Part shown: one piece after another, positions 20,819 to 27,948 of the stretch | How the letters are laid out: the number at the start of each line of letters is the position of its first letter | How positions within the stretch are numbered: the first letter of the stretch is position 1 | NCBI GenBank assembly: GCA_951406725.2 | Contig: OX597822.1 | Coordinates: forward strand, 26,722,001 to 26,786,000 | Source of the DNA: Octopus vulgaris | Lineage: Eukaryota | Length of the DNA stretch: 64,000 nucleotides | Direction: 5' to 3' | Position numbers and translations under genes: made by a program | Notes under the pieces: generated by a model | The model's input: the letters and a program-made list of their open reading frames with translations, nothing else | What the model was told of the DNA's origin: nothing | Database searches by the model: none

Positions 20819-20851
<33 letters not shown>

Positions 20852-20883
20852 AAAAAAGGTTTGAAAATGCAATTTAAACGATG

Positions 20884-20889
20884 TTTATT
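20884..20889 (-). terminator. AATAAA polyadenylation signal near the PLE 3' end
   Basis: TTTATT on the + strand about 40 nt from the element end; repeated at 26696-26701. Confidence 0.5.
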
Positions 20890-20890
20890 T

Positions 20891-25349: not shown

Positions 25350-26586
25350 GTCTGTTGAAGAGGTTTTGGTTGTTGTGATTCTGTCCCCCGTTGCTATGTT
25401 GTCTGTTGAGGAGGTTTTGGTTGTTCCAGGGTCTGGGTTGTTGGTGTGGCCTCCTGGAAGAGTTTTGGTTATTCCAGGGTTTGGGTTGTTTGTCCTGGGT
25501 GTAATGTTGGTTCCTTAGAGTGGGTTGGAAACTATATTCATGGTTTAGGAGTGAATTCCTATATGTTGGGGGAGAACTCTGAGTTAGGAGCGGTTTGGGT
25601 TGGAATCTACAATCATAGTTCAGAGATGGGTTTCTAAGTGATGGGTAGGATCTCCGAATCTGGAACGGTTCTTGTGTGGGTTGGGGTCTACGTTGTCTGG
25701 TAAAGTTTTGTCGTGTGATGATGGGTGTCTCGGTTCTTTTGATGGGATTGTAGTGCTGTCTGTAAGTTCTGTTGTTGTTGTTGTCGATGTTAGGGGTGGT
25801 GTGTGTTCGGTGTTTTGTGGTTGGTTTTCTTTGTTTTTGGCGAGGGGTGTGAGTTGAAGTAGATATTTTAAAATATGGGTTGCTTGAAAGGTGTTCCTTT
25901 GTGAACTCTGTTTCATAATTGGTGAACCAGCTGTTTTTTTCCATTAGCTGGAGGGATGTTATTTCTTCATCCTCGCAGTTTTTTCTCCAGAGTTTGGTGG
26001 TTTCATCAAGGAGTGCTCCTTCACAGTGTTTTGAGATTTCAATCTGCATTTCATTGTCAAGGGTCTTGGATTTTTCTTCACTGGTGTTGGCTCTGAGCCG
26101 CAAGAGTTCTACTTCCGTTTTGAATTTTTCAAAAGCTAGTTTCTCCCTGAGGTTTTTTTGGTTTTCTGGTTCATTTTGGATGGGTTTTATTTGTAGTTTT
26201 CTGGGTAGGATGATAGGGGTGGAGTTGAGCCACTTTTCATAAATGTCAGCTTTGTTGTTATTTTTTATGAAATTCCAGAAGGCAAACTTACGCGCTTTGA
26301 GATTTTTACTCCAGGTGTTGTTAAGAGAGCTTTTAATTGAGAAGCAGTCTTTAGTTTGCTCCTGCTTTGGGAGCACTGCCGTCTCTATGGATTTCATTAG
26401 GTTTTGCAGTGTTGGGATGATGTCAGGGATTTGATTGGTTGTTTTGGCCTCCATGAGTCCATTTAGGTATAAGTGCGATTGTTCGACTTTGTTTATTATG
26501 GTTGAAAGTTTCGAGGAGATTTCTTGTAATTCTTTTAGGATATTTTGGTTCATTAAAGATTCTGCTTGTTGTGATTTGGGTGGCAT
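25279..26586 (-). CDS. PLE ORF1: predicted helical/coiled-coil N-terminal half and disordered Q/N/R/P-rich C-terminus (435 aa from ATG at 26586)
   Basis: Uninterrupted 1.3-kb ORF between the 5' pLTR and the RT ORF, with the same A/C-rich sense-strand bias as ORF2; first ATG in GAAA-ATG context (the track start at 26646 is a GTG); heptad-like segments ILKELQEISSKLSTIINKVEQ and LREKLAFEKFKTEVELLRLRA. Confidence 0.85.
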   Translation of the reverse strand: MPPKSQQAESLMNQNILKELQEISSKLSTIINKVEQSHLYLNGLMEAKTTNQIPDIIPTLQNLMKSIETAVLPKQEQTKDCFSIKSSLNNTWSKNLKARKFAFWNFIKNNNKADIYEKWLNSTPIILPRKLQIKPIQNEPENQKNLREKLAFEKFKTEVELLRLRANTSEEKSKTLDNEMQIEISKHCEGALLDETTKLWRKNCEDEEITSLQLMEKNSWFTNYETEFTKEHLSSNPYFKISTSTHTPRQKQRKPTTKHRTHTTPNIDNNNNRTYRQHYNPIKRTETPIITRQNFTRQRRPQPTQEPFQIRRSYPSLRNPSLNYDCRFQPKPLLTQSSPPTYRNSLLNHEYSFQPTLRNQHYTQDKQPKPWNNQNSSRRPHQQPRPWNNQNLLNRQHSNGGQNHNNQNLFNRHVNGGQNHIQQNTANRRTPGFLF

Positions 26587-26655
26587 TTTCGGGACTCGTG
26601 TGATGTTTATATATATATAAAAAAGTTGAGTTGTGGGGTATCGCACGAGTGGGAT

Positions 26656-27948
26656 TATATAAGAAAAAAGGTTTGAAAATGCAATTTAAACGATGTTTAT
26701 TTACTTAACCGGTTTCACTCTTTGGTAAAAGATTGTCAAAAGTTACATTTAAGGAAACATTGAATAATATGGGTTCAAAAAAAGTTTTTTACATAATTGT
26801 CACATTGAATATTATGCATTCAAAAAAGTTTTTTACATAATTGTCACATTGGATATTATGGGTTCAAAAAAAGTTTTTTACATAATTGTCACATTGAATA
26901 TTATGCATTCAAAAAAGTTTTTTACATAATTGTCACATTGGATATTATGAATTCAAAAATGTTTTTTTATACATAATTGTCACATTATTTGGGAAAATTT
27001 GGCAGAAAAGGATAAAACAAATATATTATTGGGAATTGGTTGCGTTAATTATTGGTTGTCGCAAATTGTCACATTACATGTATATATATACAATCTTTGG
27101 TATATATATACAGCGTTTTGACAGCAAAAATTAAAATGGATTTTTTGTCCATCTCAGAATATTTTAAGTATGTTTTTACTGACCTGTTAGTATTAGCAGA
27201 AAGGCTGAACTGAGAGAACAGAAGTAGCCAATGTGGTGTATACTTCCCCTTTATGCATGAATGATTTTGGGGTTATCAGGAGGTTAGTATGCGGGTGTGA
27301 ATAGATGTGTCCGTGCCTGCTGGTCAGACAGCGTCTGTTTGTCACACACATATATATACACACAAACACACACACACACAACAACACACACACACACACA
27401 CATAGTATACAAACACAAACCACATACAGACAACACACACACACACAGAACACACACACCCACACACAACGCACCCACATATATCACATATATACACAGC
27501 ACACAAATATAACATGTATCTATATATAATATACACAGATATATAACGCACATACACACACACACACACAACACACGCACACATACATACATAATATAAA
27601 TATCACACAAATACACCTAGCATATATATATACACACATACAATACACACATACAGCATGTAAGTAATATACATACACAATATATGCATGCAATATACAT
27701 ACGCAATACATACATACAATATATATATATATAGACAATGCATATACATATATACACATATACATATAAATAGTGTTTACATACACATACATAGATGTAC
27801 CACATATACACACAACACACATACATACAATGCATACACATACACGTACGCATACATATAATATATATATACACACACACACACATAACATACATACACA
27901 CACAATGCATACATATATATACACGCAATGCATATACATGTATTCATG
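26656..27948 (-). repeat. 5' pseudo-LTR of the PLE (5'-truncated tandem copy of the element's 3' end)
   Basis: Direct repeat of 20844-22134, offset 5812-5814 bp. Confidence 0.95.
26703..26743 (-). ncRNA. Minimal type-I hammerhead-ribozyme-like motif (U3-A8 core variant), 5' pLTR copy
   Basis: Identical to 20891-20931. Confidence 0.65.

Follow-up and report, generated by a model that had tools for sequence, protein, structure and literature searches.

Endonuclease-bearing Penelope-like elements (EN+ PLEs) are canonically single-open reading frame (ORF) elements (Craig et al. 2021; PMC8557442). Here we compare with them a PLE found on the minus strand of a 64,000-nt stretch of Octopus vulgaris DNA (hereafter the window, to which all coordinates refer). 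This element differs from the Neptune EN+ PLEs of PMC8557442, to which it is otherwise similar, in having a conserved 1.3-kb ORF1 before the reverse transcriptase (RT), in another frame, as well as a 2-kb 3′ untranslated region (UTR) with a long microsatellite-like tract.

Additional ORFs have been described in several PLEs. Two ORFs were assigned to EN-less elements (PMC6431247), an esterase ORF1p was reported in Penelope-like elements (PMC3905857), and a gag-like ORF1 is mentioned for two Chlamys families (PMC8557442, supplement). The Fig. 1 legend of PMC8557442 gives an ORF1 separable by a frameshift with a pseudoknot, together with a coiled-coil (CC), for a clade left unnamed in the matching text; our element is similar in that a coiled-coil ORF1 would be joined to RT by a frameshift. 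The Fundulus Neptune element repeat.CL27 has two ORFs, with an ORF1 that lacks a database match, and no mechanism for the expression of ORF1/ORF2 is proposed in the matching passages (PMC12602865). Its coordinates 73 and 666 place ORF2 at -1 by our arithmetic (1 in 3 by chance), as in our element, while its ORF1 is only 420 nt and is called non-overlapping. Internal RT initiation near the junction of ORF and pseudo-long terminal repeat (pLTR) was noted in Poseidon (PMC11167929). Matching passages of PMC3846280, PMC5408684, PMC6515669, PMC3849965, and bioRxiv 10.64898/2026.07.22.740005 contain nothing on frameshifting. No slippery site described for EN+ PLEs was found by this text search, the scope of which did not extend to figures, Repbase, and the main Arkhipova papers. 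A frameshifted ORF1 has already been mentioned for some PLEs; what is apparently new, within the text search, is its probable occurrence in endonuclease-bearing PLEs.

The ORF1/ORF2 Junction

The features that meet at the junction are as follows.

25279..26586, minus strand: ORF1; 435 aa in the assembled letters and about 447 aa with five G
22974..25280, minus strand: frame for RT, thumb, CX4CxxC linker, and GIY-YIG, uninterrupted from the slippery site onward; counted from its ATG at 25250, it encodes 758 aa
25280..25286, minus strand: candidate site for -1 frameshifting (slippery heptamer U UUU UUA), which also resembles a splice acceptor
25294..25298, no strand assigned: G-run, four G in the window and five in contigs of four sequencing runs; the deficit shifts the ORF1 end
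25244..25252, minus strand: stretch in which the RT-frame ATG (25250) overlaps the final ORF1 codons and stop (25246-25244) of the five-G form

Both long frames are stop-free as read (25279-26685, with its first ATG at 26586, and 22974-25514). As assembled, ORF1 stops at 25281-25279, and ORF2, in the +1 frame, apparently shares 236 nt with it. The junction was checked against contigs of four sequencing runs (X1, X6, X8, and X13) from four studies. An extra G behind 25294 is present in X1 at full depth (38.8/38.8) and in X8 at 948/2047; one listed X8 contig stops inside the G-run, and X6 and X13 have loose ends at 25298 that start with an extra G. The one-base deficit at 25294 shifts the last ~15 ORF1 codons and creates an apparent 88-codon ORF2 extension. 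Homologues of ORF1 end in FL..DT(R/G)W, a peptide that falls in the third frame in the window letters, while the ORF1 end of the five-G form matches it as FL..DTRW. In the five-G form, ORF1 is in phase through U UUU UUA (25286-25280) and stops 11 codons past Phe-Leu, with the RT frame open at -1 from the heptamer onward. The -1 cassette (X XXY YYZ in phase, -1 frame open) is thus seen in the five-G form and not in the window letters as assembled. Either a homopolymer error in the assembly or a mutation private to this copy may account for the four-G run of the window. Compared with the window, the three long X1 contigs of 757, 1,597, and 1,241 nt show 0 letter differences, 4 plus the gap at the extra G, and 2, respectively; of nine substitutions checked, none of the seven in RT alters the protein, and both of those in ORF1 change a residue.

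We consider it likely that this family expresses ORF1 and RT by Gag-Pol-like -1 ribosomal frameshifting at U UUU UUA. The usual product would be the ~447-aa ORF1 protein; a smaller share of ribosomes would shift one base backward at 25286-25280 and so produce a ~1,200-aa ORF1-RT-endonuclease fusion. In the window copy, if its four-G run is real, the phase would be lost and RT could be made only from the ATG at 25250. An earlier reading of this DNA from its letters (the sequence-only reading) had regarded both ORFs as uninterrupted, the element as potentially active, and ORF2 as recoded or reinitiated. The frames are indeed stop-free, although four instead of five G at 25294 break the junction; potential activity holds for the family and is doubtful for the window copy, whose one-base deficit puts the slippery site out of phase. 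Between the two routes to ORF2, the conserved phase and the start codons missing in relatives favor recoding by -1 frameshifting over reinitiation.

One could regard the two frames as a broken single ORF, that is, a usual single-ORF Neptune copy disrupted by a frameshift mutation or misread in sequencing, given that the window differs by one base from other copies at the junction and that canonical EN+ PLEs are single-ORF (PMC8557442). Yet the five-G form still has two frames, as do the reads and the relatives, in which the two-frame layout recurs at 32-50% RT identity. Moreover, the best 120 of 974 RT homologues are 478-803 aa long, though lengths up to 1,481 aa were searched. A broken single ORF is largely refuted, and we give it hardly any weight.

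Conservation of the Heptamer in Related Loci

Among 118 related loci, 63 include the RT start, 54 have at least 250 nt upstream of it, and 51 have 400 nt. Seven of the eight loci in or near the window's branch with at least 150 nt upstream carry an in-phase U UUU UU(A/G) with RT open at -1: UUUUUUA in L001, L002, L005, L007, and L011, and UUUUUUG in L015 and L077. The exception, L008, has no heptamer and looks decayed. An ORF1 homologue is detectable in 6/7 heptamer-bearing loci, and a Met before the I.NLS motif in 0/7; therefore, their RT cannot start as that of the window might. Over the 51 loci with 400 nt upstream, UUUUUUA is distributed 8:1:2 between the frameshift phase and the other two, and GGGUUU(U/C) 13:0:0, most of these 13 coming from one assembly and including near-copies. 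Furthermore, a single DNA sequence can encode both the ORF1 end of homologue P0125 and the RT start of P0004 overlapping at -1, with agreement at all 10 codons of the tail; P0004 was the one such case among 120 RTs tested. The clusters of the two proteins have matching contig sizes (3821 and 3827).

The same signature is visible in the proteins. A profile search with ORF1 gave 937 clusters at 50% identity, indicating that ORF1 is not an orphan but a conserved family. Among 155 proteins of this family that were compared, 86 homologues are at least 330 aa long, with a median pairwise identity of 28%. FL (73) or FF (3) occurs within the last 45 aa in 76/86 of them, compared with 4/86 and 8/86 in the two 45-aa windows before that and 23/86 in a third upstream window. 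K, E, Q, M, and W, which account for 20.6% of tail residues, never precede FL/FF (0/76; p about 2e-8, assuming independence); this is expected if the preceding codon must end in U. A fixed 30-nt spacing from heptamer to stop is also suggested in the ORF1 family: 22/76 (among homologues P0127-P0275) end exactly 10 residues past FL. The phase lock with ORF1, the constrained base before the Phe codon, the open -1 frame, the missing starts, and the second heptamer type described below are all predicted by -1 frameshifting.

Translation of RT-EN as a separate protein from the ATG at 25250, leaving ORF1 as another protein, would need either termination-reinitiation (the ATG lies 4 nt before the ORF1 stop) or a shorter transcript. 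The ATG overlaps the ORF1 stop in the five-G form, an equivalent Met is present in P0001-P0006, and no fused ORF1-RT homologue of 829-2365 aa was found among 5,203 candidates, a result that is weak by the tool's own note. Such a start is missing from all seven related loci, however; the TGG of the window ATG is kept as a Trp codon without ATG in L001, L002, and L011, and the phase-locked U-run in 76/86 homologues would be left unexplained. We judge separate translation unlikely as the general route, while reinitiation may be a second route in the window's sub-lineage.

A slightly smaller chance is given to splicing, in which UUUUUUAG would be the 3′ splice site of an intron containing ORF1, so that spliced RNA gives RT and unspliced RNA gives ORF1 and the template. 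A pyrimidine run with AG is present at 25289-25279, AG immediately follows in 6/8 junctions, a donor-like AA/GTAAAT lies at the hammerhead, and Penelope and Chlamys-3_cRei are known to have 5′-UTR introns that extend across the pLTR boundary (matching passages of PMC8557442). A splice acceptor could lie in any phase relative to ORF1, but the phase is conserved, and no AG directly follows the U-run in L015 and L077. In addition, the leader of L011 is without a donor-like site by the pattern used, and contigs of three putative RNA runs cross 25279 unbroken, with no joint there among those listed, bearing in mind that contigs lose rare forms.

Several observations weigh against -1 frameshifting. 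The RNA after the window heptamer folds worse than its shuffles (z +1.75; 197/200 as good), a search for a pseudoknot or dimer there gave nothing significant, and a long-range stem to the GxKF region failed (permutation p 0.12). A stimulatory stem-loop or pseudoknot 5-9 nt downstream was not found in the window, and clear structure after the heptamer was seen only in L001 (a local hairpin) and L005 (in a 70-nt window). In the window and its nearest relatives P0001-P0006, the first RT motif is immediately preceded by a Met; a heptamer is missing from many other Neptune-like loci, in which Met occurs early; and 53/76 residues after FL/FF have G-starting codons, which also fit the UUUUUUAG acceptor. 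To our knowledge, the U UUU UUG of L015 and L077 is not a textbook heptamer. Our preference for frameshifting in this family, which we hold with good though incomplete confidence, is drawn from sequence. No run is on record as RNA; therefore, the coverage of both ORFs by X1, X6, and X13 is not taken as proof of expression.

The heptamer U UUU UUA is that of the HIV-1 gag-pol -1 frameshift. Our element resembles gag-pol in the heptamer itself, in the structural-type ORF upstream, and in the polymerase at -1, and differs in that no stable downstream stem-loop was found and that ORF1 has no capsid or zinc-knuckle match. PLEs having an ORF1 with a frameshift and a pseudoknot are said to be Athena/Terminon.

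Another ORF1 is present in a distant second branch, most of whose loci come from a single assembly; here an in-phase GGGUUU(U/C) is followed in most cases by a stop 0-2 codons later and then a hairpin. Homology between its ORF1 and that of the window was not detected (hhalign 0.2%). The hairpin is only weakly supported on a gapless alignment (71% paired, 43/500 shuffles as high). These loci (L052, L054, L056, L059, L062, L066, L071, L073, and L075 on WLWD01 contigs, and L067) are tandem Neptune-like PLEs with an ORF1 of 357-431 aa, the hairpin reads GAC-AG-GCNN..NNGC-A-GUC, and both U3-A8 and C3-G8 hammerheads occur. In a third group (e.g., L018, L026, L027, L029, L030, and L035), upstream ORFs of 171-715 codons overlap the RT frame by 13-50 nt, with an early Met and no canonical heptamer; therefore, frameshifting is not universal, and these loci possibly use stop-start coupling.

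The ORF1 Protein

ORF1 consists of a helical/coiled-coil N-terminal part of 231 aa, followed by a basic, disordered tail rich in N/Q/R/P/T that includes a 51-nt duplication. AlphaFold2 with 70 sequences predicted an N-terminal coiled-coil-like helix, a confident helical region at 81-240 (predicted local distance difference test over 90), and a disordered tail with a net charge of +25. Foldseek against PDB and viral models gave no match at E 0.001, the best VIA hits (Z 8.7) are unrelated helical bundles, and ESM Atlas gave no usable match; what matches there were are generic coiled-coil or helical-bundle ones. When capsid, RRM, zinc-knuckle, and esterase domains were checked for, no Pfam family was common to more than 1/70 ORF1 members. 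A three-copy complex model of residues 1-236 scored 0.02. ORF1 may act as an RNA-packaging scaffold through its coiled coil and basic disordered tail.

RT-Endonuclease and Placement Among PLEs

The catalytic motifs, described as intact by the sequence-only reading, are indeed complete. RT has GLKFTP, ADKG, YGLPKIHK, SFDV, GTAMGT, YLDD, and FLDI, ORF2 matches Pfam RVT_1 (E 7e-8), and the endonuclease retains LLY..C..C..YIG plus the R, E, and N residues. The N-terminal RT motifs of PLEs (GxKF and DKG) are thus combined with a C-terminal GIY-YIG, as in EN+ PLEs. Two cysteines between GIY and YIG form part of a CCHH set (C672, C675, H694, and H711) that is (near-)invariant in alignment A2. The linker C628-x4-C633-x2-C636 fits CX2-5CxxC, common to the endonucleases of Neptune, Nematis, and Naiad; its presence sets the element apart from Penelope/Poseidon, which lack a Cys-rich linker, and the C-terminal endonuclease sets it apart from Naiad/Chlamys, which have an N-terminal one and an insertion-in-fingers domain.

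Like the Neptune EN+ PLEs of PMC8557442, our element has a C-terminal GIY-YIG, a CX2-5CxxC linker, CCHH, no insertion-in-fingers domain, partial-tandem pLTRs, and a microsatellite target. RT motifs 3 and 4 are separated by 64 aa, as in the Neptune rows, and motif B, the missing insertion-in-fingers domain, and the endonuclease spacing fit Neptune over Nematis, Poseidon, and Naiad by eye (PMC8557442, Figs S1-S2). The Neptune-like placement proposed by the sequence-only reading is therefore supported by motifs compared by eye; our RT tree has 61 rows, with relatives that bear no reference names and six near-copies dropped, and Neptune itself is paraphyletic in the matching passages of PMC8557442.

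RT relatives were not found among PDB sequences or viral contigs. The closest named relatives among the matches listed are host contaminants within bivalve-symbiont assemblies. PLE sequences in bacterial genome bins (L076-L118 and named RT matches: SUP05, Bacteroidota, Stappiaceae, Nitrospirales, Thiodiazotropha, and Solemya symbionts) are most likely host DNA contamination.

Structure and Age of the Insertion

20844..22134, minus strand: 3′ pLTR, the 3′ end of the full 5,812-nt unit, by alignment
26656..27948, minus strand: 5′ pLTR, the 5′-truncated tandem partner, cut within microsatellite-like UTR and adjoining host (TA)n(CA)n
20821..20849, no strand assigned: target microsatellite (TA)14.5, into which the element's 3′ end runs, with 5-6 nt of junction microhomology provided by the element's TATATA tract

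The host genome is that of an animal, AT-rich and microsatellite-rich, and short repeats in the flanks appear to resemble those of octopus. The insertion is a very recent partial-tandem Neptune-type PLE, as the sequence-only reading had claimed: a 5′-truncated partner (27948-26656) is followed by one full 5,812-nt unit (26655-20844), the tandem or partial-tandem arrangement from which the pLTRs of PLEs arise. The two pLTR copies differ at exactly 3 positions over 1,291 aligned nt (about 3 in 1.29 kb had been estimated), namely one substitution (21734/27548) and two single-base indels within A-runs. Substitutions amount to only 0.08% (upper Poisson bound about 0.4%), which makes this a very young insertion. 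The pLTR/leader junction is crossed by contigs of X1 and X6 (records 8 and 24); therefore, the tandem junction exists outside the present assembly. A second copy was not found within the 64-kb window.

The 3′ end enters (TA)14.5, in agreement with the microsatellite targeting that had been proposed, and the 5′ end adjoins (TA)n(CA)n, so a target-site duplication is unreadable. GIY-YIG would nick (TA)n, with priming by annealing to the element's UAUAUA tracts next to the pLTR end. The DNA-run depth, which is not a copy number, climbs about 40-fold from ORF1 to the element's 3′ end, and this gain fits 5′ truncation. A claim that CpGs are preserved fared less well: CpG observed/expected is 0.43 in ORF1 and 0.53 in ORF2 versus 0.34-0.36 in the flanks, and reaches 1.10 only in a 175-nt piece of the 3′ UTR.

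Hammerheads, Leader, and 3′ UTR

20891..20931, minus strand: minimal type I hammerhead in the 3′ pLTR, with a U3-A8 core and palindromic helix III; predicted cut between 20895 and 20894; AATAAA at 20889-20884
26703..26743, minus strand: second copy of the minimal hammerhead, in the 5′ pLTR; AATAAA at 26701-26696
26594..26650, minus strand: leader hairpin with TATATATATA loop, immediately 5′ of the ORF1 ATG; z -4.9, 0/200 shuffles as good
20945..21172, no strand assigned: 44-nt x 5.1 tandem array in the pLTR, second copy at 26757-26986
21521..22860, minus strand: (TG/TA)-rich microsatellite-like part of the 3′ UTR, 1.34 kb, carried as the element's own

Terminal ribozymes had also been proposed, and one minimal hammerhead per pLTR is predicted by our own descriptor, which gave exactly these 2 matches in 7.2 kb (0.035 expected from shuffles), while an Rfam scan found no ribozyme, only microsatellite-driven miRNA noise. 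A pLTR hammerhead is a mark of EN+ PLEs. U3-A8 and C3-G8 variants of the minimal hammerhead, and a dimer model, have been described (PMC4209133). The present motifs share with described type I forms the U3-A8 variant, the palindromic helix III, and one copy per pLTR, and differ in having two extra bases in helix II before GAAA and no G10.1-C11.1 pair. The hammerheads of L002 and L011 are of the C3-G8 type and match those of the window in palindrome and location; after them come a poly(A)-type hexamer and, before ORF1, a leader of about 100 nt, similarly placed and with an AT-rich middle. Transcription probably starts inside the 5′ pLTR, and the hammerheads, through the palindromic helix III, would act as dimers to cut multimeric RNA. 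A TATATA tract belonging to the element, 50 nt past the ribozyme, forms its end; one X1 contig ends instead at a second TATA tract (26608), continuing into (TA)n.

The 44-nt array lies directly upstream of the hammerhead and has two alternating unit types with an 89-nt higher period, each unit containing a small hairpin-like inverted repeat. Of the microsatellite-like UTR (21521-22860), 614 nt are duplicated with one substitution, and this UTR may seed host microsatellites. The 3′ UTRs of L002 and L011 are only about 100 nt long, versus the 1.34-kb tract of the window element. Long ORFs in the microsatellite UTR were rejected as artefacts of dinucleotide repeats.

Other Repeats in the Window

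Dispersed families of 200-300 nt, 75-90% alike, SINE-like, and often microsatellite-ended, occur at 2336-2609, 3232-3935, 12181-12529, 30772-31056, 49113-49528, 50779-51063, and elsewhere. Sequences of 404, 156, and 171 nt are duplicated in tandem (two copies, 82-85% alike) at 3188-3973, 7595-7883, and 28884-29221.

Implications

The insertion by itself (young, TA-targeted, and with hammerheads) is ordinary for its class. It is a clean representative of a widespread two-ORF PLE variant that probably uses frameshifting. More tentatively, and at somewhat under even chances, we suggest a large, mostly marine-invertebrate branch of EN+ PLEs with an undescribed Gag-Pol-like design, in which a U6A frameshift, independent of local RNA structure, joins a new coiled-coil ORF1 family (over 900 clusters) to RT-GIY-YIG. 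A second branch would have an unrelated ORF1 and GGGUUUY, making -1 recoding recurrent or ancestral in PLEs.

EN+ PLEs are treated as single-ORF, and annotation tools take the nearest Met as the RT start. Should the frameshift prove real, the functional enzyme throughout the branch would carry ORF1 as an extra part of about 450 aa and would be produced in a constant, small proportion relative to a structural-type protein. This would bear on ribonucleoprotein assembly in the closest mobile relatives of telomerase and on the biochemical reconstitution of PLEs. The U6A site, phase-conserved at 28% median identity without an evident stimulator, would be a natural set for structure-independent frameshifting, and this young, multi-copy family would be a ready test case.

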